A stretch of DNA of 64,000 nt from Candidatus Poribacteria bacterium. Lineage in GTDB: Bacteria > Poribacteria > WGA-4E > JAJDTR01. Below are positions 15,105 through 56,787 of this stretch, one piece after another. How positions within the stretch are numbered: position 1 is the first letter of the stretch; every line of letters starts with the position of its first letter. The stretch is taken from positions 840,913 to 904,912 of the forward strand of contig CBDBEE010000002.1 of assembly GCA_965204085.1 (NCBI GenBank), read 5' to 3'. Below the pieces are notes generated by a model. The model made no database searches. It was not told where the DNA came from and saw nothing but the letters and a program-made list of their open reading frames with translations. A program made the position numbers and the translations under genes.

Positions 15105-15274
15105 AAACGTGCGTAGTTTCCACCTGTCGCCCCTCTGGGGCTTTGCTGTAGGTCGAATCAATGTTTCTATACACCTTCCGCCCCTCTGGGGCTACCAAGA
15201 TTTAAATGGGTCGCGACCTGGAGATCGCTCCTACAAAATAAGCACTTCTCAGCAGCGTGGAGTATAAACCTATA

Positions 15275-15688
15275 TTACTTTGCCAAGTTAGCGCAAACTA
15301 GCTCTCTATCATTCCGTACGAAAACATGCTTGGCTGCAAACGCCGGGTGTGTCCAACATACACCCCCACGTTGGTTCAGTTGGTCACGAGTAGGCTCAAT
15401 TAGTTTTGCCCGACTGATGATGTTCAACCCGTCCGGCGACAGACTCGTGATAAGTAACTCTCCACGTTCGTTGAACATCCAAACTTTATCCGAGTTTTTT
15501 ACGAAGTGAATCGTGCTCCAACGCGCCTTCGGAACTGCTGACAAATCCTCCCAGATACGCTCGCCGGTGTGAGAATCCAAACAACGCAATTCGCCATAAC
15601 TGTCTACCCCGTAGATGTAATCATCCAAGATAATTGGGGTTGAAATGATAGGTTGGGGGCTTATATACTTTAGTACCATAATCCCCAT
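15275..15688 (-). pseudogene. PQQ-like beta-propeller repeat protein, C-terminal fragment of a gene split by IS insertion
   Basis: It is continuous in frame with the 18607-19560 ORF once the 15656-18642 element and one copy of the target-site duplication are removed. That junction reads ...DGIQP|IISTPIILDD... Confidence 0.8.
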
Positions 15689-15931
15689 TGTTGCAGGATT
15701 TCAGGCAATTGAAAATTACTGCTTGCCCTTATCCCGCTTTTTTCGCTTAATCCCGAATAACGCACGGGCTACGTTCTCCGGCGTATCCGGGATGGATTCT
15801 GCGCTCCGTTTAGAACGCTCTGGAGGGGACTTCGTGTCCCGTTTTTTCTTCTTACTCATTATTCAGGATTGCTTTGCTTAGTCAGTATTCCTTCTCTATT
15901 GAACAGGGACAAAAAAAGTCAACAAAAAAAC

Positions 15932-16495
15932 TTACTCTGACGATCCACCTCTTGAGAACATTTGTTCCTTCCCATCCGACGTTGTTAATAGAATATGTCC
16001 CCCTTCGGTTTCAGAATGTATTCCCAGTATTGCCGCACCTCCCTTTTTTGATCGTGCCATGAAACTATATTTCCCATCTGAGGCAATAATACCTGACATG
16101 CTGTCTCCTTCCCCATTTGTCAGTGCTAATGACCCGCCAGTTTCACTATTAACTCCCAATGCAGCTACGCCCATTGACGCTTTTATAGCAGTTATTAGAT
16201 AAACTTCATTGGGTAAGTAAAATCCTACTGAACTATCGTTAGAATCAATTACATACATTCCGAAATCCGCATTACCTGGGTTCCCTTTTAAGAGTGGGAT
16301 ATGTTTCATCGCATCTCCCACTGAACCCAGAAGAATCATATTCCCACTGTTGTCATCAACTAGGATTCTTTTGCACTTTATAGTATCATACTCAACATTC
16401 CCTGGTATTTTTACGGCATTGATAGGAGTTAGAAACACGCCAACATAAGCCAGAATACCAAATACCACCGTGCACCTACGAACACTGCCTTTCAT
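15932..16495 (-). CDS. hypothetical secreted protein (passenger gene of the IS element)
   Basis: 187 aa with a signal peptide and Gly/Ser-rich repeated beta-like segments. No known motif. Confidence 0.5.
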   Translation of the reverse strand: MKGSVRRCTVVFGILAYVGVFLTPINAVKIPGNVEYDTIKCKRILVDDNSGNMILLGSVGDAMKHIPLLKGNPGNADFGMYVIDSNDSSVGFYLPNEVYLITAIKASMGVAALGVNSETGGSLALTNGEGDSMSGIIASDGKYSFMARSKKGGAAILGIHSETEGGHILLTTSDGKEQMFSRGGSSE

Positions 16496-16740
16496 TGTAA
16501 ATCCTCCTTGATAGGTTGAAGTGAGTTAAAACCACTGCTAAACCATTACGATCAAAATGATCTAACATCTTCAACCAAATGTCAAGGGGAATTTACAACT
16601 AGATCGATTTTTCTTGACTTATAGAGATTTCACGATATACTAATGAGGTAACGTTGTCACAAGGACAACGTTACCCTGCGGTTGTTACCAGCAACCGCTT
16701 CCTACTGTTCTCTCAATCAAATTGAGGAAAGGCTATAGTC

Positions 16741-17205
16741 ATGAAAAAGACAACAGCAGAAATTCTTTTAGAACGATCGAAATATATAATTTCAGCAGAC
16801 CTTCCAAGTTTGTCATACCAATCAAAATCAGTTACAATTGATTATGCGGCAAACGCCCTTAACCAATCTGCATGTTATTCTGGAAAACAATACCGGGAGG
16901 AGAACATTGACTTCGATCAATTGCATCACAACTCCAAGAAATTGTTTGCCCAAATTATATCCTCACAAATACAACTTGTACCATCACAAATACAACGATT
17001 ACACAATGAACTGACGCACATCAAAAACTCCCTAGATTTTTCCCAAAAGTTCAGACAACACCTTGATTATACCTTGAAAGTTCGCAAAACGTTACGCATA
17101 CATAAGCGTGATATTTTGATGTATCGGAATACGTTATCCCAAATTGCAAATGAGGCGTTACTGAAAGCCAAAGGCCTAAACCAGGCTGTTGTAAGGGGGA
17201 AGTAA
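16741..17205 (+). CDS. hypothetical protein (passenger gene of the IS element)
   Basis: 154 aa, probably alpha-helical. Its 5' region has a TTGACT-16-TATACT promoter and a perfect 12-bp hairpin at 16652-16680. Confidence 0.4.
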   Translation: MKKTTAEILLERSKYIISADLPSLSYQSKSVTIDYAANALNQSACYSGKQYREENIDFDQLHHNSKKLFAQIISSQIQLVPSQIQRLHNELTHIKNSLDFSQKFRQHLDYTLKVRKTLRIHKRDILMYRNTLSQIANEALLKAKGLNQAVVRGK

Positions 17206-17215
17206 ATTCAGTTCC

Positions 17216-18181
17216 TTAAACCGCCGGAGGATTATTCTCCGGCGGCTTTGCTGTTAGTTGTTCGTACTTCAACTGTTTCCCGACAGTGTTCTTGGCAACA
17301 TCAGCCATTTGTTTACCGGTATCCTCACGCCTAACGTTATGGCGCCCTTCAAACTCATTGACGTAACGGTGTAGGTGTTTCTTACTCATTTTGTGATACG
17401 TGCCGGTAAAGCCACGTTTCATCAATGACCAGAAACTTTCCATCCCATTGGTATGTGCTTGCTCCCGCACATATTCGCCAATGGAGTGTTTAACCGAGAG
17501 ATGCTTGCGTTGAAGCCCTTTATACGCCTTAGCTTCATCAGTATAAACCGTTGCATCTTCTCCCGTCTTATCTTCTACAAACCCCTGAAGTGTTTTACTG
17601 TCCGTGCTTTCTACCACTTCAGCAGTCACCTTTTTGGTTTCTCTGTTCTTCGCGCCGACAACGGCAACCTTCCCTACAGTACCACGACCGGCGTGTAACT
17701 TCTTACTCGCGTGCTTGTTCTTCTCTTTACCGCCAATATAGGTTTCGTCAACCTCAACTTCGCCGCCAAATGCGTTGTTAGTCGATTCCCACGCCTCCCG
17801 AATCCGGTGTGCCATGTACCAAGCGGATTTCTGGGTGATTCCCAAGTCACGGTGCAGTTTCATTGACGAAACCCCTTTGATTCCAGTGGTCATCAGGTAA
17901 ATGGCAATAGCCCATTTCTGATAGCCAATGTTGCTCCCGTGCATCACGGAGTTCGTTTTCACCGAAAACCGTTTCTTGCAGTCATTACACCTGTGAGGCA
18001 TTGTGGGGTGCTTAGTATGCTCTTTAACGTTCTCACTTTCGCAGTAAGCACAACGGATTCCGTCCTCCCACCTACACGTCTCAAACCACTGTTCCGCCGT
18101 CACGTCATCAGGGAACATTTGAAAAAGTTCCACCAATGTAATACCCTTCCTGTAATGCTGTCCTGGGGCATTCTTAGCCAT
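17216..18181 (-). CDS. IS1595-family transposase (N-terminal zinc ribbon plus DDE domain)
   Basis: Zinc-ribbon motif CAYCES...CNDCKKRF, followed by the ISXO2-like DDE transposase region (YKGL...HSIGEYV...TNGMESFWS). Confidence 0.85.
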   Translation of the reverse strand: MAKNAPGQHYRKGITLVELFQMFPDDVTAEQWFETCRWEDGIRCAYCESENVKEHTKHPTMPHRCNDCKKRFSVKTNSVMHGSNIGYQKWAIAIYLMTTGIKGVSSMKLHRDLGITQKSAWYMAHRIREAWESTNNAFGGEVEVDETYIGGKEKNKHASKKLHAGRGTVGKVAVVGAKNRETKKVTAEVVESTDSKTLQGFVEDKTGEDATVYTDEAKAYKGLQRKHLSVKHSIGEYVREQAHTNGMESFWSLMKRGFTGTYHKMSKKHLHRYVNEFEGRHNVRREDTGKQMADVAKNTVGKQLKYEQLTAKPPENNPPAV

Positions 18182-18606
18182 TTTTCTTTCTCCTTTCTAT
18201 GACATATATTATACTATTTTCGCCCAAAAGTCAACGAAAATCCAGTCATAGCAAGGGTTCAAGGGGTTTCGACGAATTTCGTAATTACCAGAATTAGTAT
18301 TGGCGAAATTAAAAAAGTTCGATATAATTTGAGCGGGGAGCAGTCCACTTACTCCCCGAAAGGAGGTATTCAACTATGAATACCTCAAAAAGTCGGTATC
18401 CCCAAACGGATACCATCCTTGAGCGAAAACGCCTTTCGCGTACCAAGTCTGTTTTAACATGGTACAACGCCCAAACGGGCGAAAAGGTGTTTTGGATGAC
18501 GGTTGAAATAACCGGATTCTTCGCTTAAACCAGTGCGGGCGTTCACCCCAAAATGGACGCCCCACTTCCCACTTTTCTCAAATTACACCGAAATCCAAAA
18601 AAACTG

Positions 18607-19560
18607 CTAAATTAAGAAAATGGTATTAAGGTATATAAGCCCCATAGGTTGAATGCCATCAGTATTCTTTTCATCGGCGCCTCGCCGCCACCATATCTCT
18701 TCAACGGCTAAACGCTCAGAGGCGACTTTGAGCATTAACGAACCCTCAAAAAAACCAGCCATGAACAGCCGGTCTTTGTAAAGCACCGGAGTCGCGACGG
18801 CGAGGATTACTCCTTTCGGCGGGAACGCGTGTACCCAGTACAACTCACCACTTTGCGGGTTTAGACCAACCACGTTATCCCCAGTCCAGCACACCAGTAC
18901 GCGTTTACCGGCTTGGTCAATCATAATGGGTGCAGCATATGAGGCGCGATCATCCAACGCTTTCCACCTTTCTTCTCCGGTGCTCCGATCAAACGCAACA
19001 ATGCAAGCGCCGGGCGACCCACCGACCTGAACTATCAGAAGGTCATTTTCTACGAGGGGAGCACTGGCAATGCCCCAGACGGGCATCTGTATGTTGTATT
19101 CGGCGTTGAGCTCCCTTTTCCAGCGCAGATCGCCGTTGGCGGCATTTAAGCAGTGTAGATGCCCCATCGTTCCGAGCGCATAGGCAAGTCCATCGTGTAC
19201 AGTAACGGAAGCTCGCGGTCCAGCCATATAACCGACATTCCTGTATTCACAATCGTAAGAAGTAGACCAAATCTTGTCGCCAGATTCCGCGTCGAAACAA
19301 TGAACCCGCTCAATCTGCTTGGGAGTTGTGACGCGATCAGTCACGAATACGCGACCGTCCACGACCGTTGGACCACTATAACCACTTGACACGGGGACAC
19401 GCCACCGAACGCTCACCTCGGGCGCATCGAATTTCTCAATGATACCGGTTTCGTTCCATACTCCGTCGCGGTTAACGCCTCGCCACTGAGGCCAATCGTC
19501 CGCAGATGTTGGCGGCGCAATGATTAAAATAACGAACAATCCGAACAGAACAATCTTCAT
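18607..19560 (-). pseudogene. PQQ-like beta-propeller repeat protein, N-terminal part with signal peptide, truncated by IS insertion
   Basis: Signal peptide and PQQ-type repeats. The reading frame runs into the IS right end. Confidence 0.8.
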
Positions 19561-19636: not shown

Positions 19637-20647
19637 CTACTCCCACGGTAGCGGGATTCCCAAGCGTTTGCTAACTTGCCTCAAGTCGGCTTGCTCCGGT
19701 TCTCCGTACCGAATGCCTTCACGCCGGTGCAATTCAAACAATTCTTGCTCAATGGCACCGGGAAGCAAAGCGCGGTCATACCCCGGCATCGGTTGGTAGG
19801 TCTCGCGCACATCACGCACCATCCGATCTACCTCGGCACGGAAAACCGTCTGGGGTACCACTGCATTAATGTCAATGGCTAAGACCGTGCCACCGAAGCT
19901 AGCGCCGGGCCAACGTTTGATCAGATCATCCGACTCGGGGAGCATGAAACCGGTAAGTGCGCCGCCCATGAGGCTCGCTACCGCGGTGTAACCCATGCTC
20001 TTGAAAAAGGCTGCCGGAATTCTGCGAAGGAGCATTTCTCGCTCAGCCGTATCGAGATTATCATAGCCGGATACGATGTTCGTGGCAGCGTCTAGCACCA
20101 CGGGTGGCTCATTCCCCGCCGGAATAGCAAAGCTAATCGGGGGATTTCCGTAAAAGCCGACTTGCGGCTTAGGCTCTCGACCGGCGGCGTTTCCCATGTT
20201 ACGATGCCCCTGCGATGAGAATCCGATGCAACCTGCCTCCATGCACATCCGAGAATAGTGACCGGCCGAGCCGTAGTGATCGATATGCCGAACCAGACCG
20301 ATACCAATTCCAACCGCTTTCGCTTTAGCAATTGCGCCTTCCGCCGCACGGGTCATGGGCATATAGCCGATTGTCCCATCTCCATCAAGCACTATGGAGG
20401 TCGGGGTTTCATGCATCACCTGTATTTCAGGTCGAGGATTGGTTGTGCCTCTTTCGAATCCGTCGCAGTATATGTCTACCGTCCGCGAGCCGTGACTACG
20501 TACGCCGCGCAAATCGTTATTTACGAGCAAGCGGCTTACCAGCGCAGCGTGTTCGCGTTCCAGTCCTATCTTCTCGAAACACGCAGTGACAAACGCAATC
20601 AGTCGAATTTCTTGTACCTGAACAAAGGATTTGGGCGGTTGATTCAT
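19637..20647 (-). CDS. Ldh_2 family malate/L-lactate/sulfolactate dehydrogenase
   Basis: GVRSHGS motif and overall Ldh_2 similarity. The start is taken at the ATG giving MNQPPKS. Confidence 0.75.
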   Translation of the reverse strand: MNQPPKSFVQVQEIRLIAFVTACFEKIGLEREHAALVSRLLVNNDLRGVRSHGSRTVDIYCDGFERGTTNPRPEIQVMHETPTSIVLDGDGTIGYMPMTRAAEGAIAKAKAVGIGIGLVRHIDHYGSAGHYSRMCMEAGCIGFSSQGHRNMGNAAGREPKPQVGFYGNPPISFAIPAGNEPPVVLDAATNIVSGYDNLDTAEREMLLRRIPAAFFKSMGYTAVASLMGGALTGFMLPESDDLIKRWPGASFGGTVLAIDINAVVPQTVFRAEVDRMVRDVRETYQPMPGYDRALLPGAIEQELFELHRREGIRYGEPEQADLRQVSKRLGIPLPWE

Positions 20648-20698
20648 AGGAGTAGGAGGCACTTAGTGCGCCACCCGCTTTGATGGCAATTGCGATTG

Positions 20699-21496: not shown

Positions 21497-21580
21497 TAGG
21501 AGGTAGCGATTCTGAGATCGCTCCTACAGTTCGGTTGTTAGAAGCGGGTTACGGCACACGGCGTGTGCCTACTACTATTG

Positions 21581-24500
21581 TCACTTCCTTATCAGCATCT
21601 TGCGCGTCGCCGTGAACTCGTCTGCTCTCAATGTGTAAAAGTATAAACCACTGGCGACTGGCTCACCATCCTGATTCCTGCCGTCCCAATACGCCGCACG
21701 GCTGCGACTGTGATACATGCCTGCCGGTCGATGTCCAATCTCTATACGGCGAACCGTAACCCCATTCATGTCGTAGACTGTCAGCGTTACCTGTGAGGGC
21801 ACCGCCAACTGATACGGTATCCAGGTTTCAGGATTAAATGGATTCGGGTAGTTGGGGTGCAGCGCGGATTCACCGGGAATGATCAGTGAGGTTAACAGGT
21901 TTTCGAGATTCGCGATGCCCTGTCGAAAGGTGATCGAACCGTCGTCTACCAGCCGTGCCTGTGAAATCCATGTCTCTATCAAATCCCTATCGCGCTCGTT
22001 ATCCACTCGCTTGATCGAAGGCGCGGCGGCTCCTCCAATGCCCTGTGCCACAAGTGTGAGGTCGAAGATGTTGATAATCCCGTCGCCGTTGATGTCCTCC
22101 GGCGAGTTGGGGGGTAGGCGTTTCCCCAACTGCTGTGCGACGAGGATCAGATCCAGAATGTCGACGCCACCGTCACGATTCACATCTCCGGTCAGTAGGC
22201 GTTCCTCCACTGTGAGAAAGATTTCATGAGGCCCCGCCGGGATGTTTTCCCCGGTACTAGAGCCGAACTTGAAGTTACCCAACGCCAAGCGCGTCTCGCC
22301 ATGCGATTTCGCGGTGAACTGTACTTGAAGTACTGTACCGGCACCACGGACTCCGCCGCCAGAGAGTCGTGCAGATTTGAGCCCCGTGATTTTACCCACT
22401 GCGTTGTCAATCCGCCCACTCTGGAAGAAAGTTGTTCCACCGTCCGCCATCAGGAAGTCGCCTTCGCTTACGTCAATCGCTTCAAGAATGGCTGGGTCGA
22501 AGGCGATATCAAACTGCCACCCTGCCAAGTCGGCAACATTTTCTGCACGCACGTCGAAGGTAAAGGTATCGCCGAGGTGGATTGGCGTATCGGAAAATGC
22601 GTAGCCTATGCCGGTTCCCACTGCGTATTCGGTGTCTGATTCAAATCCGAAAAAGGCGTTAGCCCCGCGGTTGACATCGGTGGCAACGGCGACCAACAGC
22701 ACATTCCTCCCCTGTTGCAGCGTCACCGGAAAGAAGTCATTGTAATCCTCTCCTTCGCGACGGTCGTAGTGCCCGCGGAGGAAATCGCCGTTGAGCCAGA
22801 TCTTCAAACCAGCTAGTGCCCCCACGTACATCGTTGTGTCCTGTTCGCGCGGGGAATAGAGAGAAACCGAGCCGTAGATAACGCCGTCCGGGAGACGCTG
22901 TCCCACCATGTCCCAAATGTTGTTCCGCCCCGTCGGCGGGAGCTTATCGGAAGTCCATACCTCATCGCCGACCGAATTCCCCTCGGTTGCACCATGCGTA
23001 GCGACCGCTTCCTCTGTCACTATGCCCTGGCTCGCTGCCGCAAGGAAGTCCATGTTCAGATGTTTTCCCATCGGGAAATAGACCCAAAGCCAAGGACCTT
23101 CTATCTTGGAACCTCCTATAGGGAACCCCGGATTGTTGTGCCATTCGATTTTTGTGTTTGCACGCAACCCATCCAAGGGCGAAAAGTCGGAAATATTGTT
23201 GTTGCCCACCCCCAACCATATCAGGTTTGTTAGCCCTGCCAGTGCCGAAATATTCGATATCCGGTTTTCGGACACATTCAGGCGCTCAAGCCCGGTTAAA
23301 CTCGCAAGCGGCGATATGTCCGATATTCCGTTCGAGACGAGATATAGCCTTTTTAGCTTGGGCAGGTTCATCAAAGGCGAAAGGTCTGACAAATCCGCAC
23401 CGCAAATATCTATGCTTTCCATGTTTGTTAATCCGGCTAGTGGCGACAAATCGGAGAAGCGGTTGCCCCAAGTACCAATGCCTTTCAAGTTATGTAATCC
23501 CGCAAGCGGGGATATATCAGATACGCTGTTTCCGGTAAATCCCAATACCTCCAGATTGATCAAGCCAGCTACAGGAGAAAGGTTGGAAATCAGATTACCT
23601 AATAATTCTAACCGAATCAGATTGGTTAATCCCGCAAGTGGTGACAGGTCGGAAATCTTATTCTCTCTGACATTTAATCTATCCAGATTGATTAATCCCG
23701 CAAGTGGTGACAGATCTGAGATCGCATTACCTCCAAGCTGTAACTCTCTCAACCTGGTTAATCCCGCTATCGGAGAAAGGTCGGAAATCTGTGTGCGAAA
23801 AGCGTCCAGCCTACTGAGATTTCTCAATCCATTCAGCGGAGATAGATCGGATACAGGGTTGTTGCTAATCCTGAGTTCATACATTTCAATTAAGCCTGCT
23901 ATAGGTGAAAGGTCAGAAATCTGATTGTCCGTGACAAGCAATTCTCTCAGATTGGTAGCAAATTGCAGTCCAGTCAAATCGCGGATATCCCTGTTACTCG
24001 GCTTAATTTTACTCAATGTTTTCATCTCCTCCGCGGTAATGGGGGTATTGGCGCTTTTGCCAAGCGCTTCCGCAACGGCGGCACGCAAGTTGGAATCAGG
24101 GAAATGAACCTGCCCACCAGGCAACACATCGGGCTGTGTTATGACCGGAGGCTCTCCGACTAACTGCGGGTAGTCCAGCGCAGAAATTATATCTCGAAAA
24201 CTAGATGTCCAAGTATCTCGCTTCACACTCCCGTTTTCATTGTCTAGCGCCAGCAACCCAACGTTTTGCAGTCCGGTGTTCTCACGTATCCTTTCGAGAA
24301 AGGTTTCGGTCTCCAACCCGACCACAGCAGCAGCGTATGCCACGTCTATCGGCGCCTGAAACGCTTCATGAAAACGTGAAACCGGCTCAATACCGTCAAA
24401 CGTACCGCCCGTGGCTTCAAGCGCTACTCTGTATGTTTCCATGTCTTCACCCACACGGGCATCCATGTCTGACTGTTCCACATAGAGTCGCAGCGCCTGC

Positions 24501-25810
24501 GCTTTGTTATAGGGTGGACTGGGGTTGCTCTCAATTGCGGCACGCACCTCGTCTTCAAAGGTCTTCATGCCCTCCGTATGGCAACCGATGCAGGAGATGC
24601 CGTTGCGCACCGTGGGGTCGCTGGTAGCGGGATTGGAAACGATGTTTATCGGGGCTTCATCCAACCGGAAACCGGACGCATTGGCAAGGTAGTATCCTTG
24701 CAACCCGTTTGGCAGATTGAAGATAGCTTCTCCCCCATCGTGCGTGAAGTTAAGCGGGTGGGTAAAGATGTTTTGTGTACCCACACTCCCTGCAAAGTCG
24801 TAGCTCTTCCAATAGGCTCCATAGCGTGAGGTGTGTCGTTCCACGACACGGTTGTGGTTTGAGACACCCGAGTTGTTGAATCCCGCACGCCAGACACGGA
24901 CCCCTGGTGCGTTAACCAGATTGCCTGCAACATCAACCTCCAGCCGGGTTTCCAAGTCCCTGTCCGTCAACGGCAGCGACAGTAGTTCGTGATATAGTGG
25001 CGGAGTAGATGCGGTTGCAATAAACCAGTCGATATGCACTGACGGAACATCGGTCTTCATCTGTGTTTGCAAGCGCCCCAGTTGTGACCGGAGTGTAGTG
25101 TCGGTTGGAGCGTCAAACGCGATGTGGTAGGGATAGGCTTCCTCTATCTTTGTCCAGCCGTCATTCCGATCCCACTCGTAGTGACGGAGGTCGATGTAGA
25201 AGATAGTGACTTGCGGGTCGATGGGTTGTGGGTTGGTGATTCCGCTTCCCCATGAGAGGCTATTGACCAGTTTGTTGAGCGCTTTGCGGTATTCAGCAAG
25301 TATCTCCGCTGTTTCGCCAGCATTATAGAGGTGGGTGAGAGTGAAGTAACGGGCAAAAGCGCGGTCAAACGACGAGAGCGAGCTGAGGTGTGTCTCAATG
25401 CTAGTGAGCACTTCGCTGGGGGGAATGAAACGATGATCTGGCGCACTAGTTGCCGCCCAATCGGGTGCGCCAGCTAGAATCCAGCGTCGAACCGTCTCAA
25501 TGGATTGGGCGGGCAATTGAGGCAGTCCAAACGGCATCTGCGCGCCGTTTTCGGTGGGACCGAGGAGGCGTTTGTACAATTCGGATGCATCTGGATTTCC
25601 AAGTACAACAGTGCCACCATCAATGAGTTCGCTGTGCTCCATGAGGAGCGTTTCTCGAAAGGCGCCGTCGGGGCCATGGCAGTTCAGGCAACTCGCTTCA
25701 AAGATGGCGTAGGTGTCTTGGGCTAACTGCGATTGGGCAGATAGATTTTCAGAACCTGCGCTGAGAGACAGTAGGCATATCAAAGCAAAAATGAAATGAC
25801 GTTTATACAT
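21581..25810 (-). CDS. giant secreted multidomain protein: N-terminal cytochrome-c-like CxxCH region, about 14 leucine-rich repeats, dockerin-like repeats, and a T9SS/FlgD-type C-terminal sorting domain
   Basis: Signal peptide. CLNCHG motif. 22-residue LRR units (LxxLxLxxNxISDLSPLAGL). Repeats DVNRDGGVDILDL and DINGDGIINIFDL. C-terminus ...GLYFYTLRADEF...K. Confidence 0.8.
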   Translation of the reverse strand: MYKRHFIFALICLLSLSAGSENLSAQSQLAQDTYAIFEASCLNCHGPDGAFRETLLMEHSELIDGGTVVLGNPDASELYKRLLGPTENGAQMPFGLPQLPAQSIETVRRWILAGAPDWAATSAPDHRFIPPSEVLTSIETHLSSLSSFDRAFARYFTLTHLYNAGETAEILAEYRKALNKLVNSLSWGSGITNPQPIDPQVTIFYIDLRHYEWDRNDGWTKIEEAYPYHIAFDAPTDTTLRSQLGRLQTQMKTDVPSVHIDWFIATASTPPLYHELLSLPLTDRDLETRLEVDVAGNLVNAPGVRVWRAGFNNSGVSNHNRVVERHTSRYGAYWKSYDFAGSVGTQNIFTHPLNFTHDGGEAIFNLPNGLQGYYLANASGFRLDEAPINIVSNPATSDPTVRNGISCIGCHTEGMKTFEDEVRAAIESNPSPPYNKAQALRLYVEQSDMDARVGEDMETYRVALEATGGTFDGIEPVSRFHEAFQAPIDVAYAAAVVGLETETFLERIRENTGLQNVGLLALDNENGSVKRDTWTSSFRDIISALDYPQLVGEPPVITQPDVLPGGQVHFPDSNLRAAVAEALGKSANTPITAEEMKTLSKIKPSNRDIRDLTGLQFATNLRELLVTDNQISDLSPIAGLIEMYELRISNNPVSDLSPLNGLRNLSRLDAFRTQISDLSPIAGLTRLRELQLGGNAISDLSPLAGLINLDRLNVRENKISDLSPLAGLTNLIRLELLGNLISNLSPVAGLINLEVLGFTGNSVSDISPLAGLHNLKGIGTWGNRFSDLSPLAGLTNMESIDICGADLSDLSPLMNLPKLKRLYLVSNGISDISPLASLTGLERLNVSENRISNISALAGLTNLIWLGVGNNNISDFSPLDGLRANTKIEWHNNPGFPIGGSKIEGPWLWVYFPMGKHLNMDFLAAASQGIVTEEAVATHGATEGNSVGDEVWTSDKLPPTGRNNIWDMVGQRLPDGVIYGSVSLYSPREQDTTMYVGALAGLKIWLNGDFLRGHYDRREGEDYNDFFPVTLQQGRNVLLVAVATDVNRGANAFFGFESDTEYAVGTGIGYAFSDTPIHLGDTFTFDVRAENVADLAGWQFDIAFDPAILEAIDVSEGDFLMADGGTTFFQSGRIDNAVGKITGLKSARLSGGGVRGAGTVLQVQFTAKSHGETRLALGNFKFGSSTGENIPAGPHEIFLTVEERLLTGDVNRDGGVDILDLILVAQQLGKRLPPNSPEDINGDGIINIFDLTLVAQGIGGAAAPSIKRVDNERDRDLIETWISQARLVDDGSITFRQGIANLENLLTSLIIPGESALHPNYPNPFNPETWIPYQLAVPSQVTLTVYDMNGVTVRRIEIGHRPAGMYHSRSRAAYWDGRNQDGEPVASGLYFYTLRADEFTATRKMLIRK

Positions 25811-26252
25811 AGAAAATGTCCCCTTTATGTATGGATAACCAATTTTGGTAATTGTTTAGATCAGTCCAGAACTTACGCGTCAACAGGAAATCGCGACCTG
25901 GAGATCGCTCCTACATTACGCTCAGGGATCTCTATGGGAATTCTATCGCATTCGCTATCCGCTCATTTGATCGCTCACTATCCGTTCGCTTGATGGTGTA
26001 GGAACGGGGATTAAACTGCAGCACGACGAACCAACATTCCCAAAACAGATTGATATACTCAGCACCGGTTAATTTTGGGCAATTGTGCACCGAAGGTTTG
26101 TAGGAGCGATCTCCGAATCGCGACTGTCGGGAATCGGTGGGAACTCCTCCTACCGCCTGCAAAACTCATGCTCCATTTCTTGACTCTTAAAAACGCAACT
26201 TCCAACAGCGTAGAGTATAGACTAAACAATTACCAATCGCGCATAGCCCAAC

Positions 26253-32472: not shown

Positions 32473-32751
32473 TCATGCAGTTCGATATAGTTCAGTGGTT
32501 GCCTAGCCAAGAGATTATGTAATCGGATTGAATTAGTACGCACACGCTGTGTGCCGTCAACTGCCTTACGTCGACTAGTAGGAACAATCTCCAGGTCGCG
32601 ACCACGTCCTTACTTCATTTTAATGCAATCAAAGAGTTCGCGACCGGGAGGTCGCTCCTACCTATACTCGGGTGGTACAGTGTGGTTTACGGCACACGGC
32701 GTGTGCCTACTACTTTGAAACGATGCCATAGACTCTTAGCGAGCGAACCAT

Positions 32752-37612: not shown

Positions 37613-40600
37613 ATGAAAAAATCCCTGTTTGTCATGTTTATCCATTTATTCATTTCTGTCCTGTTTTTGCAGAACAGTTTCGCGCAGGAATATACACGAT
37701 GGGGGCTGCCGGAGGGCGCTACGGCGCGCCTGGGAAAAGGTGGAATAAATGAAATCGCGTTTTCGCCGGACGGGTCACAGTTTGCAGTGGCAAGTAGTAT
37801 CGGCATCTGGCTCTATGACCCGAACACCGGCACTGAAGTCACCCTCCTCACCGGGCATACGTCCTCTGTCAATTGTGTAGCCTTCAGTCCAGATGGGAAG
37901 ACTATCGCCAGTGGGAGTTCCGACGATACCATCCGTTTGTGGGATGCTACCACTGGAGTTCATAGGCAATCACTTACCGTCCATAACTCTATTGTCAATA
38001 GCCTAGCCTTCAGCCCGGATGGGAAAACTATTGCCAGTGGGAATGGTTCCATCACAGGTGAAGATAACACAATCCGTATGTGGGACGCCGTTACTGGAAA
38101 ACTTAAGCAGACAATCTCCGGGCACGCAGACATAGTTACTAGTGTCGTCTTTAGTTCCGATGGCAGTGCACTTGCAAGTCAGACTTTCGGTTTCGACAAA
38201 CAGATTCATATCTGGAATGCTTACACAGCCGACCTCAAGTGGAGGTCAAGCTTGCCTGAGTATTCGGTCCGTAGCATCGCTATAAGCCCCGATTGGTACA
38301 CAGTTGCAAGCGGGAGTAGTGACGGAACAATCCGTCTGTGGGATGTTGTCACGGGAGCACATAAGACGACGCTTGCCGGGCATACGGATCCGGTCAATAT
38401 CATTGTCTATAGCCCGGATGGACTTACAATCGCCAGTGGCGGTTTCGACGGTACAATCAGGCTGTGGAATGTCGCCACGGGAGCACAAAAGGCGACGCTT
38501 GCCGGGCATACGAGTTGGATTGACCACATCGCCTTCAGCCCGGACAGTAATACGATTGCTAGTGGAAGTGACGACAGAACCATGCGGCTGTGGGATGTTA
38601 CCACTGGAGCACAAAAATGGATCGTCCACGAGCATACGGATTCGATAAACAGCATCGCCTATAACCCGGATGGACGTACAATCGCCAGTGGTGGTTTCGA
38701 CGGCACCATCCGGTTATGGAAAGTTGCTATGGGCGAGGTCAAGCGAAGTTTCGGGTTTGGGTACGGAGTCGCTCTGAGCCCAGACGGGCGCACAATTGCA
38801 AGTCAAGTTATTGACGAGATTTTTCTGTGGGACGCAAGCACAGGAGCACAAAAGCAAGTTCTCACCGGGCATACAGATCGCGTTCAAAGCATCGCATTCA
38901 GCACGGATGGGCGCACAATCGCCAGCGGGAGTCAGGATAAAACCATCCGGCTATGGGATGTCGCCACGGGAGTACAAAAGCGAGTTCTCACCGGGCATAC
39001 AGATCACGTTCAAAGTATCGCATTCAGTCCCGATGGGAATATGCTTGCCAGTGGGAGTTGGGACCATACCATCCGCCTATGGAATGTCCTGACGGGCAGA
39101 AACAAGCACACGCTCACAGGTCATACAGCTTTCGTCAACTGTGTCGCATTCAGTCCCGATGGGATCGTGCTTGCCAGTGGGAGTGACGACATTCGCCTAT
39201 GGGAGGCCGACACGGGGGCGCACAAGCGAACGCTCACCGGGACGAGATCGGTCGGGAGCCTAGCTTTCAGCCCGGATGGGGATACAATCGCTAGTGGAGG
39301 TTCGGGCGGTACTATCCAACTGTGGGATGCTCTTACATGTACTAAGAAGCGCACATTCACTGGTCATACATATCGGGTCAACAGTGTGGTTTTCAGTCCA
39401 GATGGAAACACAATTGCCAGCGGGAGTGAAGACGGGACAATTCTGATGTGGAACCCGCTTCCTGATCCAAGTGTAATCGTTACGGAGCGCGGGTTTGACA
39501 ACTATAGTCTGGGGCCCGCTCAGCAGGGACTGCCTGATGGTGCTAAGGCGCGGCTTGGTAAGGGTTCGGCATCTAAGATTGCATATTCTCCAGATGGAAC
39601 ACGTCTTGCTGTCGCGAGTAGCATTGGGATTTGGCTCTATGATGTCCACAGCGAGAGCGAAGTCGACCTTCTGACCGGGCATACACATCGTGTCTCTAGC
39701 GTAGCGTTCAGCCCGGATGGGAGCACAATCGCTAGCAGCAGTAATGGGATTCGTGACAATACCATCCGTCTATGGGATGCTGTCACGGGGGAACACAAGC
39801 TGACACTAGTCGGGCATACAGATGCGGTCATTAGTGTTGCTTTCAACCCGGACGGTGGTACGATTGCCAGTGGAAGTGATGACAATACCATTAGGATGTG
39901 GGACACTATCACAGGCGTACACAAGCTGACGCTCACGGGGCATTCTAGCAACGTTAGCAGCGTAACGTTCAGCCCAGATGGAAGGACCATTGCCAGTGGA
40001 AGTGATGACAAGACCATTAGAATGTGGGACACTATCACAGGCGCACACAAGTTGAGACTCACCGGTCATACGGATTGGGTGACTAGTGTCCTCTTCAGCC
40101 TAGACGGTAGCACAATTATCAGCGCCAGTAGAGACAAGACAATCCGTCTGTGGGATGCTACCTCAGGCGCACACAAGCTAACACTAGCCGGGCATACAGA
40201 CCCAGTCATTTGTGTCGCCTTCAACCCGGATGGGAGTATGATCGCCAGTGGGGGTTTGGACAAGACCCTCCGACTGTGGGATGCTACCTCAGGCGCACAC
40301 AAGTTGACACTCACCGGCCATACGGATTGGGTGACTAGTGTCCTCTTCAGCCCAGACGGTAGCACAATTATCAGCGCCAGTAGAGACAGGACAATCCGTC
40401 TGTGGGATCTTCTCAAAGGCACCGATAAGATATTCGCTCGGGACAAGATGAAGGCCAATAGTGTTACCTTCAGCCCAGATGGGAGAACACTTGCCACTGG
40501 AAATCACGACAATACAGTCCGATTGTGGGATACCGTCACAGGCGGACACAAACAGACGCTCACCTGGCACACCGATGAGGTCACTAGTCTCGCCTATAGC

Positions 40601-41299
40601 CCAGACGGCGACACGCTTGCCAGTGGTAGTAAGGATTATACCATCTGTCTGTGGGATGCCGTCACAGGCAAACATAAGCGGACACTTACTGGACATACGT
40701 TTAATGTAAATAGCATTGCGTTTAGCCCGGATGGCAGGATTCTGGCTAGCACGAGTAATGATAATACTATCTATTTGTGGGACGTTCCGACAGGTACACT
40801 CAAGCACACTCTTATTGGGCATACGAATTGGGTTACTGCCGTTGCGTTCAGCCCAGATGAGAAAACACTTGCCAGTGCGAGCTACGACACCACCGTGCGG
40901 CTGTGGGACTCCGTCATGGGCAAATTCAAGCGGACATTCACCGGTTATAATCTTGCAGTCCGGAGTGTTGCCTTCAGTCCAGATGGGAGAACACTTGCCA
41001 CTGGAAGTGGCGACAATGTCCGATTGTGCGACGCCATTACGGGCATGCACAAGCGGATCCTCGCCGGACATACGAATTGGATCGATAGTGTCGCGTACAG
41101 CCCTGATGGGCATACGCTCGCCAGTGGCAGTTGGGACCATACCATCCGACTATGGGACACCATCACAGGTACTCACAAGCAGACCCTCGCCGGACACACA
41201 GATTCGGTTGTGGGGCTCGCATTCAGCCCGGATGGAACCACGCTCGCCAGTTGTAGTGAGGATGGTACGATTCTATTGTGGGATGTGACCGCCGAATAA
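37613..41299 (+). CDS. WD40 repeat protein (about 28 repeats, two homologous halves), secreted
   Basis: Signal peptide. Reiterated GHTxxVxSVAFSPDGxTIASGSxDxTIRLWD units. The N-terminal block GLPEGATARLGKGGINEIAFSPDG reappears at about residue 630. Confidence 0.9.
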   Translation: MKKSLFVMFIHLFISVLFLQNSFAQEYTRWGLPEGATARLGKGGINEIAFSPDGSQFAVASSIGIWLYDPNTGTEVTLLTGHTSSVNCVAFSPDGKTIASGSSDDTIRLWDATTGVHRQSLTVHNSIVNSLAFSPDGKTIASGNGSITGEDNTIRMWDAVTGKLKQTISGHADIVTSVVFSSDGSALASQTFGFDKQIHIWNAYTADLKWRSSLPEYSVRSIAISPDWYTVASGSSDGTIRLWDVVTGAHKTTLAGHTDPVNIIVYSPDGLTIASGGFDGTIRLWNVATGAQKATLAGHTSWIDHIAFSPDSNTIASGSDDRTMRLWDVTTGAQKWIVHEHTDSINSIAYNPDGRTIASGGFDGTIRLWKVAMGEVKRSFGFGYGVALSPDGRTIASQVIDEIFLWDASTGAQKQVLTGHTDRVQSIAFSTDGRTIASGSQDKTIRLWDVATGVQKRVLTGHTDHVQSIAFSPDGNMLASGSWDHTIRLWNVLTGRNKHTLTGHTAFVNCVAFSPDGIVLASGSDDIRLWEADTGAHKRTLTGTRSVGSLAFSPDGDTIASGGSGGTIQLWDALTCTKKRTFTGHTYRVNSVVFSPDGNTIASGSEDGTILMWNPLPDPSVIVTERGFDNYSLGPAQQGLPDGAKARLGKGSASKIAYSPDGTRLAVASSIGIWLYDVHSESEVDLLTGHTHRVSSVAFSPDGSTIASSSNGIRDNTIRLWDAVTGEHKLTLVGHTDAVISVAFNPDGGTIASGSDDNTIRMWDTITGVHKLTLTGHSSNVSSVTFSPDGRTIASGSDDKTIRMWDTITGAHKLRLTGHTDWVTSVLFSLDGSTIISASRDKTIRLWDATSGAHKLTLAGHTDPVICVAFNPDGSMIASGGLDKTLRLWDATSGAHKLTLTGHTDWVTSVLFSPDGSTIISASRDRTIRLWDLLKGTDKIFARDKMKANSVTFSPDGRTLATGNHDNTVRLWDTVTGGHKQTLTWHTDEVTSLAYSPDGDTLASGSKDYTICLWDAVTGKHKRTLTGHTFNVNSIAFSPDGRILASTSNDNTIYLWDVPTGTLKHTLIGHTNWVTAVAFSPDEKTLASASYDTTVRLWDSVMGKFKRTFTGYNLAVRSVAFSPDGRTLATGSGDNVRLCDAITGMHKRILAGHTNWIDSVAYSPDGHTLASGSWDHTIRLWDTITGTHKQTLAGHTDSVVGLAFSPDGTTLASCSEDGTILLWDVTAE

Positions 41300-42335: not shown

Positions 42336-42410
42336 CTTCAGTAGGGTGGGCACTGCCCGCCATTTCTTGTGGAATGTAATTAACTAACGCGAGTTGCTAC
42401 CTATAACAAA

Positions 42411-42505
42411 GAAACCGAGTTTTTGGTTCGCGTGCGCTAAATCATAGGTAAATTTGGCTGATTTCCGTAAATTTTGAGTTTCCACGTTGGAAAAAACTCG
42501 GTTTC
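42411..42505. repeat. long hairpin with conserved arms gaaaccgagttttt / aaaaactcggtttc and a variable loop of about 65 nt, copy 1
   Basis: Inverted repeat seen directly in the sequence. The same arms recur at 45604-45635 and 56638-56731. Confidence 0.6.
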
Positions 42506-42626
42506 TGCGCTTCGTCGGACAAACGTGGCAACTTGGGTTAACTATCATCACATCCCCGACTCGTTTTCTACTGAAATCAAGCAAAAATTCGTTGAATTTC
42601 ATCACACGGCTACGGAGGAATCTACC

Positions 42627-45587
42627 TTGACAACAGAAATCGTATGCACCACCATATTCATGGCGACATTTCTCGCTACCAACAACATAACCTGGAGCGA
42701 GGATAAGGAGATTGTCGGTGAACGCCCCTACGAAATGGAATGGGCAAACCGCACCGAAGACACCTACCCACCTCTAATTGATTTTGAAGACTTGGCAGGA
42801 TGGCGCGTTGAGACCTCTAATGCGACCGCAACTTTCCAACGCTCGCGAGAACAGCAACTCTGGGGGAAATACGTTGCCAAACTCACCTACCGCGCGACGG
42901 AAGCCAATCCCGAAATCCGCATCAGTCCTCCAGCCCCCATACCGATTCAAAACGGCTTTGAGGTGGTCTCCTGCTGGATCTTCGGCAAAGAACGCCATCG
43001 CCCGAAGATTTCCGCGCTGTTCAAAACTTCCGATGGACGCGAGATGCTGTTTTCCATGCGCGCGGATTGGGATAACTGGGGATGGTTTCAATCTTACTAC
43101 CGATTGTCTCCCGATCAAATTGATCTCGTCGCGGACGGTTCCACTTTCACCGGGTTCATCATTCGTGATTCCAACGAACCGGAAGATCGCCTGATCTGCT
43201 TTGACAATCTAGCCGTCTTCACTGAAGACTTCAAACCGCTGTATTTCAAGCCGCGTCCTCGACGCGGCATCCCGATGTTCCCCGGACAAGGAACGGGGAC
43301 GAACACCGGTCCCGGCAAACTCCCGTTTCCAACGCGGAAGGAAACCATTTTGCCCGACAACCTGACAGACGAATTCACGACACACATACAAGCCGAGGGC
43401 GGTGGTTTTACCTTTCGCTATGAGGGCGTGGACGGCACTCTGATTTACCGGCTTGAGCCTCGTACCGGCACGTTGAGTGACATCAGCGCCGAGTGGGTGG
43501 GGCTAGGCGGTCCGATTCAGCCGTGCGTCGGCGGTGGCGTGTATCTGGCGACCAAGGCGGATTCCCCCTCTCCACCTGAGTCCACCGAGCATTTAGGCAC
43601 GGACCTCCAAGATGAGAAGGTCGTCTCGCGATGGCGGCTAAAGGCTAAAGGAGTGACGCAGGACGTAATTTATGTATATCGACTCTGGAACAAATCGCTT
43701 GCAATTGACACGCTTGCCCCCGGTGGGGACGTTGCCGAAGTAAGATACGGAAAGGCTGTCGGCGTGGAGAATCCGCGCCTGGTCGACAATCCGTTTTACA
43801 CCTACAACGGCTACATTCCCGACGGACGTCCGGCGGTTGTCGTCGCCGGTTCGCAAGACGCGCCGCTGTTCCTGACCGGAAACACCGACTGGTACCTATC
43901 CAATGCCTCAATGCTGCTGCCCTCGCCTTCCCTGACGCCCGATGGAGTTGTCTACAACACCGGCACGCGGTATATTCCCAAAACCAACGGCGCGCGGGTT
44001 GATTGTTACGAGCGATTTTTCATCACCGTTTCCCCGCGTTACGAGGAGATGTTGCCCACTATTCCGAATCCAAAGTCCCCGTGGCTGAGTCATGTGGGCA
44101 CCCGGCTCTGGAAAGCGCATCAGTCCGAAAATCCGCGAGCAGACGGGATACGCTTTTTCAGAAAACTGCACCGGTACGGGATAACCGAAATGACAATCAC
44201 CGACCATGAAGGCGGATGGCGCGACGGAGGTGAAAGTTTTACGTTTCGAACCCGCGGCGCACCTGAAAAGGGGGGCGACGAAGGATGGGCGGAATATTCC
44301 CGCGTTCTACGGGACGACATCGGTTACATTTACGGTCCTTACACGCAGTTCCTTGATATCGCAGCCGTCAATGAATACTGGGACACCGACATCATCACGC
44401 GAACCCCCGACAATCGGATGCACGGGGGCTGGCGCCGTTGTTACCGAGCCAAGCCCGCCCGATCCCCGGAATATTGCGAGTTGCTGTCGCCAATCATCAA
44501 AGAAAATTTCGGATTCAACGCGAGCTACCTAGACGTGCATACACTCCACACCCTGGATTTTGTAGATTACGACTACCGTGTGCCCGGCGCCGCGACCTTT
44601 GCTGCAACCTTCTACGCCTACGGAGAAACCATGCTGATTCAAAAGCAAATATACAACGGACCGGTATTCTCGGAGGGTGGTCACCAATTCATCTTTAGCG
44701 GCCTGATTGATGGGAACTACGCTCAGGACCGTGCGGGCAAAGTGAAGTTGGCTTGGGGACCGTGGTTGGTGGATTTTGAACTTCGGAAAACTCACGATTT
44801 GTGTGCCAATATCGCAATGGGAGAGTACGGCATGTTCTACCGGGGAGAGGAGCCGGAACCAAGTGGTCGCTCGGGTGAAGATCCGCGTAGTGACCGGCAC
44901 ATTGCCGCGACCATCGCGTTCGGTCACGTCGGCATCCTCCAATACGAAGACCCGCTTCCGCGCATGATGCGAATCTACTACATGCTACAGCAATTGCAGA
45001 GCCGCTATGCGATGTCTAGCGTGGCGGAAATACGGTATGCGGACGCGGACGGAAATCTCTTGGATACCACTGCCGCCGTGGCATCCGGCGCCTACAAACG
45101 CTCACAGATCGTGACCCGTTACCGGAGCGGGTGCATCACCGTGGTAAACGGCAATGCAAATGACGAATACATGGCGGTAAACGCCTACGGAAGGCGCGTA
45201 ACACTGCCTCCGAACGGTTATGCTGGCTGGACCGAAGATGGAGCGATTGAGATTTTTAGCGGCGAGATTCACGGTCACCGCGCTGATTACGCAGTGACAC
45301 CCGAATATATCTTCATTGATGGGCGTAGTAAATCAACGCGATTCCCCAAAGCGGAAGGAAATGGAGTAGGAATCTGCCGCATTCGTCCGGATTGGAAATA
45401 CGAGGTAATTCTGTTTGACGGCTCCGATTGCGGTTTCGCGATCGAAGCAAATCAAGCCGTGGCGCTAGACGAAGAAAGAAATGAGATTGGAACGACAACA
45501 CTGCGCGAGTCTGACCGTTTCATCTACGTAGAGCAAGTGCCGGGCGCCTTCAGCTACTTGCTCAGCACCGACAACTCCTCAAAATAA
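42627..45587 (+). CDS. large hypothetical protein of unknown function (about 986 aa)
   Basis: A long ORF with no recognisable motif. The likely TTG start at 42627 is preceded by GGAGG, since the annotated upstream portion overlaps the hairpin element. The N-terminus is hydrophobic. Confidence 0.5.
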   Translation: MTTEIVCTTIFMATFLATNNITWSEDKEIVGERPYEMEWANRTEDTYPPLIDFEDLAGWRVETSNATATFQRSREQQLWGKYVAKLTYRATEANPEIRISPPAPIPIQNGFEVVSCWIFGKERHRPKISALFKTSDGREMLFSMRADWDNWGWFQSYYRLSPDQIDLVADGSTFTGFIIRDSNEPEDRLICFDNLAVFTEDFKPLYFKPRPRRGIPMFPGQGTGTNTGPGKLPFPTRKETILPDNLTDEFTTHIQAEGGGFTFRYEGVDGTLIYRLEPRTGTLSDISAEWVGLGGPIQPCVGGGVYLATKADSPSPPESTEHLGTDLQDEKVVSRWRLKAKGVTQDVIYVYRLWNKSLAIDTLAPGGDVAEVRYGKAVGVENPRLVDNPFYTYNGYIPDGRPAVVVAGSQDAPLFLTGNTDWYLSNASMLLPSPSLTPDGVVYNTGTRYIPKTNGARVDCYERFFITVSPRYEEMLPTIPNPKSPWLSHVGTRLWKAHQSENPRADGIRFFRKLHRYGITEMTITDHEGGWRDGGESFTFRTRGAPEKGGDEGWAEYSRVLRDDIGYIYGPYTQFLDIAAVNEYWDTDIITRTPDNRMHGGWRRCYRAKPARSPEYCELLSPIIKENFGFNASYLDVHTLHTLDFVDYDYRVPGAATFAATFYAYGETMLIQKQIYNGPVFSEGGHQFIFSGLIDGNYAQDRAGKVKLAWGPWLVDFELRKTHDLCANIAMGEYGMFYRGEEPEPSGRSGEDPRSDRHIAATIAFGHVGILQYEDPLPRMMRIYYMLQQLQSRYAMSSVAEIRYADADGNLLDTTAAVASGAYKRSQIVTRYRSGCITVVNGNANDEYMAVNAYGRRVTLPPNGYAGWTEDGAIEIFSGEIHGHRADYAVTPEYIFIDGRSKSTRFPKAEGNGVGICRIRPDWKYEVILFDGSDCGFAIEANQAVALDEERNEIGTTTLRESDRFIYVEQVPGAFSYLLSTDNSSK

Positions 45588-45603
45588 CCTAAGAATCACT
45601 GTA

Positions 45604-45635
45604 GAAACCGAGTTTTTCCCCCAAAACTCGGTTTC
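45604..45635. terminator. hairpin gaaaccgagtttt-loop-aaaactcggtttc immediately after the stop of the large unknown ORF
   Basis: 13-bp stem with a 7-nt loop. It is a short-loop member of the same inverted-repeat family. Confidence 0.5.
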
Positions 45636-45871
45636 TTGAAATATCCCCACTAACTTATTTTACCATTTCTATAAAATGGAAGTGCATTGATTACGTGGAT
45701 TAAGTAAAGAAACTTGCTTGGAACTGAACAACAAGCCTCGTCTCTGCGCGAAGTCCGCGGGGCAAGGGGATCTCTATCGCATTCGCTATTCGCTCATTTG
45801 ATTCCCGCCTACGGAAAAAGTGGACGATACCATTCAGACATCATATGCACTATTATTCAAGCGAAATGGTA

Positions 45872-48204: not shown

Positions 48205-48442
48205 CATATCACCGGGGAGTGCACTGATGAATTAAAGTAGAGTTCCTAGCGGAAGCGATTACGGCACTTGGTTGTGCAACCGTCGGTATTATCTGCAGCG
48301 ATATTCCCGATTGGATTTCAGCGTTTGAAAACTTTTCCTATGATTAGATTGATTGCTTCCCCCTCAATACTGTAGGAGCGATCTCCGAATCGCGACTCCA
48401 GCGCGCAATTTCCAATAAGAAATAAAAAGGAGGAACTACAAA

Positions 48443-56578: not shown

Positions 56579-56637
56579 TCTGGTCAATTGGTTTGCCGAA
56601 TTGACTCAAGTTAACGACTTGACTCGAAAAGGGCACA

Positions 56638-56731
56638 GAAACCGAGTTTTTTCGTCGCGGACACACAAGTTCGACAAAAATCTACCATATTCTATCATAA
56701 TTCGGCACGGGTGAACCAAAAACTCGGTTTC
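56638..56731. repeat. long hairpin with gaaaccgagtttttt / ccaaaaactcggtttc arms and a variable loop, copy 3
   Basis: Seen in the sequence between mazG and the methyltransferase gene. Confidence 0.6.
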
Positions 56732-56787
56732 TCTGTTACTGGTAACAGCTTGAAGAAAGTATTTAACCATATTATCGGAAGCCAAGC

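Follow-up and report, generated by a model that had tools for sequence, protein, structure and literature searches.

An IS1595-family transporter insertion sequence in the PQQ-like gene of a likely Poribacteria sponge symbiont

In a 64-kb stretch of bacterial DNA (hereafter the window, with positions counted from its first letter), an insertion sequence (IS) of the IS1595 family occupies positions 15656–18643 and splits a gene encoding a PQQ-like beta-propeller protein. The element is very likely an intact and probably still mobile transporter IS (tIS), that is, an IS with passenger genes between its terminal repeats, which recently transposed into this gene of a likely Poribacteria sponge symbiont. 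The insertion documents that a mobile element has recently knocked out a gene, with cleanly resolved boundaries, in an uncultivated bacterium that is probably a sponge symbiont. Its exact boundaries are now given for annotation, and it deserves an IS name.

The element and the gene it interrupts

The element was measured, by direct reading and by script, at 2988 bp, one base pair more than the 2987 bp given in an earlier note on this DNA that was made from the sequence alone. Its left end carries GGGGCTTATATAC at 15656–15668, and the reverse complement of GGGGCTTATATAC lies at 18631–18643; these 13 positions pair perfectly, as the earlier note had described. A repeat search extended the terminal inverted repeats to 24 nt with 2 mismatches, the left repeat (15656–15679, + strand) marking the transposase-distal end and the right repeat (18620–18643, − strand) the transposase-proximal end. 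Immediately outside the repeats, the 8-bp target-site duplication ATAGGTTG stands in two identical copies (8/8) at 15648–15655 and 18644–18651. The same note had named indexing errors in these repeats as a refuting outcome; both the inverted repeats and the duplication proved to be real. Its statement that 8 bp is the target-site size of the IS1595 family also agrees with our data, in which perfect 8-bp duplications flank 43 delimited elements of related loci, including that of the window.

Perfect 13-nt inverted pairs spaced 0.5–6 kb apart are not rare in this window (18 pairs, compared with a mean of 4.5 after shuffling), and only the element's own pair is adjoined by a perfect 8-bp direct repeat. 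None of 50 shuffles of the window produced an inverted pair with an adjacent 8-bp direct repeat. The G+C content of the element is 43%, compared with 50% in the flanks, and is lowest in the passenger part (37–42%).

The interrupted gene lies on the − strand, with its 5′ part at 18644–19560 (PF13360, 4e-25; residues 1–306 of the reconstruction by tblastn) and its 3′ part at 15275–15655 (PF13360 match and tblastn of the reconstruction); PF13360 (PQQ_2) thus matches both halves. Removal of the element together with one copy of the duplication (2996 bp) restored an open frame of 1290 nt encoding 429 aa, slightly shorter than the approximately 433 aa proposed earlier, and the junction reads ...EKNTDGIQP|IISTPIILDDYIYGVDSYGELRCLD, exactly the in-frame fusion that had been predicted. 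The restored protein has 7274 homologues at E ≤ 1e-20 and is 91% and 90% identical in amino acid sequence to P0003 and P0004, respectively, two proteins of 429 aa that it matches with full (100%) coverage. P0004 is encoded by an uninterrupted gene on two long contigs (L082 and L083) whose neighbourhood is syntenic with the window, with an Ldh_2 gene upstream and genes for an RRM RNA-binding protein and a DAHP-synthase fusion downstream; the search for an intact counterpart that the earlier note had suggested was therefore successful. The nucleotide alignment of the restored gene with this orthologue is gapless over 1290/1290 positions (86.6% identity), and the uninterrupted orthologue contains one target octamer, CATCCTAT on the gene strand, compared with CAACCTAT in the window.

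The ratio of nonsynonymous to synonymous substitution rates (dN/dS) against the orthologue was 0.086 and 0.062 for the 5′ and 3′ parts, respectively (about 0.07), and neither half contains a stop or a frameshift. Because the duplication is perfect and the two halves still look constrained and are free of stops and frameshifts, the sequence indicates that the insertion is recent, as the earlier note had held. The gene is split after codon 306, and the open reading frame (ORF) at 18607–19560 now encodes 317 aa, comprising 306 native residues and 11 contributed by the IS end; this truncated product retains the hydrophobic N-terminus (signal peptide). No polar effect is expected since the PQQ gene is the last before a convergent neighbour on the other strand. 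The PQQ-like gene is inactivated by the insertion of the element, an event that is clean and of an ordinary kind. The Ldh_2 gene that precedes the PQQ gene has a predicted product of 341 aa in the window (19637–20662) and of 156–201 aa in L082/L083 (3979–4584); the start sites may differ, or the gene may be truncated in the relatives.

The PQQ protein and the neighbouring RRM protein fall into 90%-identity clusters with members named Candidatus Poribacteria bacterium (MDE0298073.1 and MDE0042100.1), and from these cluster names the host is most likely a Poribacteria sponge symbiont. The window also encodes a 1409-aa protein with LRR, cohesin, dockerin, and FlgD_ig domains (21581–25810, − strand) and a 1228-aa WD40 protein (37613–41299, + strand). 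As far as their domains can tell, these two large eukaryote-like repeat proteins (LRR and WD40) are consistent with a sponge-symbiont genome.

Transposase and passenger genes

The transposase gene (17216–18181, − strand) is intact and encodes 321 aa. The protein matched the NCBIfam model NF033547 (IS1595 family transposase) with 190.1 bits (cut-off 75) and PF12762 with 133.9 bits (cut-off 27; 6e-39). The zinc-ribbon model PF12760 scored 17.1 bits (E 0.0055), below its cut-off of 25.4, and support for a zinc ribbon therefore comes from the four-cysteine pattern (CxxC...CxxC). In an alignment with 45 relatives, the residues C44, C47, C65, C68, D145, D215, and E248 are invariant, as are R256, E276, and R280, and K255 is kept in at least 80%. 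The assignment to a zinc-ribbon/DDE transposase of IS1595 type made in the earlier note is thus well founded, and every family-level feature of IS1595 that we tested was present, i.e., the DDE domain, the zinc-ribbon cysteines, terminal inverted repeats with an 8-bp duplication, and an intact catalytic triad. A promoter-like site (TTGACT-17-TAATAT; 18206–18234, − strand) lies upstream of the gene. The dN/dS of the transposase gene against a sister element on contig L084 was 0.05, and the gene is therefore maintained as functional. The best identity of the transposase was 47% in 72,556 plasmid records, where annotated matches read just ‘IS1595 family transposase’, and 69% in 185,579 species genomes. 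Only five relatives were found in viral contigs (best identity 58%), so carriage by phages is not evident, and no relative was found in the PDB by sequence.

By analogy with the family, the zinc ribbon at the N-terminus of the transposase and the helix-turn-helix region behind it would recognise the 24-bp inverted repeats, and the DDE centre (D145, D215, and E248) would join the element ends to target DNA cleaved with a stagger of 8 bp. Gap repair would then yield the ATAGGTTG duplication, and everything between the repeats, namely the transposase gene and four further ORFs of 47, 187, 154, and 50 codons (orf47, orf187, orf154, and orf50), would move together.

The sister element (L084:3835–7907) is 4073 bp long and has the same ends, an 8-bp duplication of its own (ATATAAAA), and an unrelated gene neighbourhood. 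The first 51 nt of the two elements are identical, and they share a backbone with 90–95% nucleotide identity, consisting of the left end with orf47, the promoter and hairpins of orf154, orf154 itself, the transposase gene, orf50, and the right end. The sister element lacks the orf187 module and has unrelated DNA in its place; a 1.2-kb segment directly after the hairpins encodes a different protein of 219 aa with a signal-peptide-like N-terminus. On this sequence comparison the passenger slot is modular. The earlier description of the element as a transporter IS holds, given that a constrained orf187 lies between the repeats and that a different gene takes its place in the sister element. The ORF list and the Pfam and NCBIfam scans showed neither a resolvase nor a second transposase nor a flanking IS pair in the element. 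The cargo DNA consists of approximately 1.5 kb of lower-G+C sequence on one side of the transposase gene and a further 0.46 kb on the other; the earlier note had described the former as AT-rich cargo, which was confirmed in the sense of a lower G+C content, and had not mentioned the latter.

The passenger gene orf187 (15932–16495, − strand; 187 aa) encodes a protein with a hydrophobic N-terminus, a probable signal peptide, followed by a region that is predicted to be all-beta and carries the repeated motif G..A.LG..SET.GG.L.LT. A single non-identical homologue, P0002 (64% amino acid identity), was found among 5.8 billion proteins. The P0002 gene and its promoter region are 73% identical to the orf187 region at the nucleotide level, with a dN/dS of 0.22, from which it follows that orf187 is a real gene. 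On its contig (L081), no IS end was found downstream of the P0002 gene, and the contig breaks off on the upstream side. Judged by these sequence features, orf187 probably encodes a secreted beta-rich protein under its own promoter.

On the opposite strand, a promoter-like site (TTGACT-16-TATACT) and two perfect hairpins (16647–16675 and 16679–16699) form the leader of orf154 (16614–16699, + strand), and both the promoter and the hairpins are kept in the sister element (94% over 80 nt). orf154 itself (16741–17205, + strand; 154 aa) may be classed as a passenger or a backbone gene, and its product is predicted to be all-helical. Its single non-identical homologue among the 5.8 billion proteins, P0124 (82% identity), is encoded within the sister element, and the corresponding dN/dS was 0.53. 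A terminator-like, GC-rich hairpin with an 11-pair stem (8 G-C pairs) follows orf154 at 17221–17245 (+ strand) and overlaps the 3′ end of the transposase gene.

The stretch from the transposase start to the right end is unusually long (462 bp) and contains orf50 (18376–18528, + strand; 50 aa; MNTSKSRYPQTDTILERKRLSRTKSVLTWYNAQTGEKVFWMTVEITGFFA), which is preceded by a near-consensus promoter-like site (TTGGCG-17-TATAAT), a leader hairpin, and a strong ribosome-binding site (18300–18528 together with orf50, + strand). orf50 is conserved in the sister element with 95% nucleotide identity and a dN/dS of 0.28, a value derived from 8 substitutions only, and a hairpin downstream of it is retained there with a different sequence. 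In a tblastn search of the related loci, orf50 was not found in relatives other than the sister element. Exact-sequence look-ups of the transposase, orf47, orf50, and P0001 returned no record, and the 24-nt end GGGGCTTATATACYTTARTACCAT had no match in JGI metagenome contigs. Rfam gave just two sub-threshold chance matches to the element at E ≤ 1 and none to the whole window at gathering score. An element of the guide-RNA or bridge-RNA type is unsupported, as these Rfam scans gave no known RNA.

Related elements in other genomes

Among 485 relatives of the transposase found in the 185,579 species genomes, the 80 closest were subjected to locus analysis. These loci are located in metagenome-assembled genomes (MAGs) of Chloroflexota (Dehalococcoidia, Caldilineaceae, Aggregatilineales, and Anaerolineae), Latescibacterota, Alphaproteobacteria, Rhodothermales, Acidimicrobiia, Vicinamibacterales, Binatia, Candidatus Poriferihabitans, and Candidatus Spongiisocius. 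Several of the MAG names point to sponges, and the bin codes COS, RHO, and APA appear to match sponge species studied in PMC8163846. At 62 of the 80 loci, the transposase lies between a pair of ends of the GGG[GA][AC]TTATATAC type. The delimited elements range from 1392 to 5189 bp. Their 43 duplications have an A+T content of 83% and a WWWNNWWW pattern, in genomes of 47–68% G+C.

The cargo of 48 distinct related elements is very diverse. It includes fusions of N6_N4 methylase with HNH (13 proteins), Dam-type and EcoRI-type methylases, and DndB, as well as SH3-domain proteins, a CAP-domain protein, a metzincin-like protein, and nested ISs of other families. A 3921-bp IS1595 element of a Latescibacterota MAG, flanked by a perfect 8-bp duplication, contains a gene for a 455-aa ankyrin-repeat protein (L020:7718–9082, − strand) and, by its sequence context, illustrates the carriage of a eukaryote-like gene by an IS1595 element. 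Recent transfer across phyla is not demonstrated by these data, the closest transposase pairs lying mostly within one bacterial class.

Two sets of multiple copies were observed within single genomes. Identical IS copies on one Roseovarius MAG chromosome (L078, L079, and L080) and in one Dehalococcoidia MAG (L056 and L057) have permuted 8-bp flanks, for example the left/right combinations TTATTTTT/ATAGTTTT, ATAGTTTT/CAATATTA, and CAATATTA/TTATTTTT. Flanks permuted in this way are a signature of homologous recombination between copies and would correspond to genome rearrangements. In one Thioclava MAG, at least 15 loci (L059–L073) carry the same element, with a Dam-type methylase and a 228-aa ORF, and some copies are interrupted at differing positions by a 484-aa DDE_Tnp_1/DUF772 transposase gene, which looks like an IS burst with nested insertions.

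A small basic protein recurs in this clade. In the window it is represented by orf47 (15716–15859, − strand; 47 aa; MSKKKKRDTKSPPERSKRSAESIPDTPENVARALFGIKRKKRDKGKQ), a very basic member of a small-ORF family that was defined with a local hidden Markov model (HMM); a tblastn search with orf47 had pointed to a short motif that many relatives share close to their far end. The local HMM placed the family in 35 of 49 distinct elements, and 24 of these 35 small ORFs are oriented like the transposase gene and have their stop 5–64 bp from the transposase-distal end. The proteins are usually 45–75 aa long and very basic, often with the pattern ...RGRP-x(6-9)-IPDTPENVARAL-x(3)-PPKK-x(3)-WRY, in which RGRP corresponds to the AT-hook core. 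In pairwise comparisons of 18 elements, nucleotide identity across the motif was 0.80 at the first, 0.85 at the second, and 0.43 at the third codon position. This codon-position pattern argues for conservation at the protein level and not for a DNA binding site. The dN/dS of orf47 against the sister element was 0.27. A phmmer search of orf47 against 1.84 billion representatives returned 4 hits only, the query being too short, and no Pfam model matched the family. A role in DNA binding, in the regulation of transposition, or in targeting to AT-rich sites may be proposed. We know of no description of such a small basic ORF for IS1595.

Alternative explanations, known systems, and minor repeats

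The element could be an immobile relic, i.e., an old insertion with a non-working transposase in which the passenger ORFs are decaying, non-coding filler. The presence of one copy in the window would suit a relic, as would the near-orphan status of the cargo ORFs and the relaxed constraint on orf154 (dN/dS 0.53), whose C-terminal stretch is scrambled relative to the sister element. However, the duplication is perfect and the inverted repeats match at 22/24 positions, the transposase is full length with all invariant residues kept and a dN/dS of 0.05, the halves of the target gene are stop-free and look constrained, orf187 has a dN/dS of 0.22, and the sister copy occupies a different site with its own perfect duplication, all of which make a relic improbable. 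It is also unlikely that the passenger region represents a separate mobile element or integron-like cassettes nested in a plain IS, with the hairpins of the orf154 promoter as recombination sites. This model draws on the observation that the divergence between the two sister elements starts right after the two conserved hairpins, where the sister element has its extra 1.2 kb, and on the nested ISs in other relatives (DDE_Tnp_1 genes in L060, L018, and L030). Nevertheless, neither a second inverted-repeat pair nor an internal duplication or a recombinase gene is present inside 15656–18643, and deletion or insertion explains the differences equally well, two sister elements being compared. Finally, the source assembly is metagenome-derived and ISs are classic sites of misassembly, so that a repeat-induced chimera might have joined an IS contig into the PQQ gene; such a chimera would neither make a precise 8-bp target duplication beside complete inverted repeats nor leave the gene halves exactly abutting in frame, and we consider an artefact of this kind highly improbable.

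Several observations nonetheless weigh against an intact, mobile tIS of the kind described above and against the parts assigned to its genes. Neither a second copy of the element nor a second transposase match was found in the 64-kb window. The four extra ORFs gave nothing significant with Pfam, NCBIfam, PADLOC, and PHROGs, and the structure models of the cargo proteins were poor or uninformative: the AlphaFold model of orf187 was unusable (predicted local distance difference test score, pLDDT, 31), and that of orf154 (pLDDT 64) had its best Foldseek match in the PDB at E = 0.28, among generic helical bundles, which is not significant. The A+T content of ATAGGTTG is 5/8, compared with the norm of 83% in the duplications of relatives. 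Regarding the small protein, orf47 of the window is without the RGRP motif of many homologues, and the minimal elements L075 and L077, two copies of 1392 bp whose perfect duplications differ, are without a small ORF, so that this ORF cannot be essential for transposition.

The occurrence of transporter ISs in the IS1595 family is described in bioRxiv 10.1101/2021.05.26.445724 and in PMC3129680, which cites Siguier et al. 2009, and a passage in PMC11891212 states that the tIS, with passenger genes between the repeats, was defined on the basis of this family. Because IS1595 tISs have already been described, a single insertion is of limited importance; the window element is a further IS1595 tIS, and the main lead lies in the clade as a whole. 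Regarding subgroups, ISNwi1 is characterised by GGnnatTAT ends, 8-bp duplications, and the catalytic motif D-D-E-K with E-x3-R (ER4). Passenger-carrying ISNwi1 derivatives measure about 1.75–4.75 kb, and the length of the window element is inside that range. The window element ends in GGGGCTTAT, and its relatives end in GGGAATTAT or GGGGATTAT, closer to ggnnatTAT; the transposase has E248 with K255 at +7, plus E276 and R280, as in the DDE-K and E-x3-R signature. The element thus probably fits the ISNwi1 subgroup. In common with IS1595 tISs of this type, it has one transposase combining a zinc ribbon with an IS1595-type DDE domain, an 8-bp duplication, and passenger genes unrelated to transposition between the repeats; its ends, which begin GGGG/GGGA..TTAT, may also correspond. 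Unlike them, it carries passenger DNA on both sides of the transposase gene, its transposase is at most 47% identical to proteins of plasmid records and at most 69% identical to those of species genomes, a small basic ORF recurs at the transposase-distal end in its clade, and its 80 closest loci include MAGs with sponge-microbiome names or bin codes.

ISNha5 elements belong to the same family and likewise hold passenger genes inside a single-transposase IS, but they are larger (3.4–7.9 kb), with different ends, a DDER/K motif, and regulator genes, traits that were not seen in the window element. This subgroup of IS1595 consists of tISs carrying transcription regulators (PMC11891212). The eukaryotic Merlin transposons and IS1016, whose relationship is discussed in PMC8101967, share with the window element a related DDE superfamily, duplications of 8–9 bp, and short terminal inverted repeats, but they are minimal and cargo-free, whereas the window element is bacterial and has four extra ORFs. 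Unit transposons of the Tn3 family also hold passenger genes between terminal inverted repeats; however, their transposase of approximately 1000 aa, resolvase and res site, repeats of approximately 38 bp, and 5-bp duplications are all absent here.

No report linking IS1595 elements to sponge symbionts was found in our literature search. Within its scope, outside of which lay the 2009 paper, ISfinder, and TnPedia, we also found no description of the size and multi-phylum occurrence of this clade, including probable sponge-symbiont MAGs, or of its defence and eukaryote-like cargo and recurrent small ORF. We tentatively propose, as a possibility that is less probable than its negation, that the clade is a large, undescribed group of IS1595 tISs shuttling defence and host-interaction genes across phyla, probable sponge symbionts included, and that the small protein is a new accessory transposition factor. 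The methylase-HNH fusions, other DNA methylases, and DndB would represent the defence side of such a shuttle, and the ankyrin, SH3, CAP, and secreted orphan proteins the host-interaction side. The small basic protein (RGRP...IPDTPENVARAL...WRY), for instance as an AT-hook-like factor, would steer insertion to AT-rich sites of the TTTNNAAA type. The relatives share one backbone across many phyla and carry restriction-modification-like and eukaryote-like genes, classes reported to be enriched and laterally transferred in sponge microbiomes, and lateral transfer of such genes there has been inferred statistically (PMC8163846). If the proposal is true, the clade would be a concrete vehicle for that lateral gene transfer.

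The window further contains two families of short repeats. A dispersed intergenic repeat of approximately 25 nt, TCGCGACCTGGAGATCGCTCCTACA, was located at 15211–15235, 21503–21528, 25891–25915, 26099–26124, and 48371–48386, with degenerate copies near 32577, 32647, and 34707 (8 matches, compared with 0.39 expected). One copy directly follows the 3′ end of the disrupted PQQ gene, the gene for the 1409-aa LRR/cohesin/dockerin protein has inverted copies on either side, and the repeat looks like a repetitive extragenic palindromic (REP) sequence or a miniature inverted-repeat transposable element (MITE). The second repeat, AGAAACCGAGTTTTT, occurs as closely spaced inverted pairs at 42410–42506, 45603–45636, and 56637–56732 (7 matches, compared with 0.17 expected). 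Such pairs flank a 1037-aa ORF without a Pfam domain (42474–45587) and may represent either terminators used in common or a further family of small repeats.

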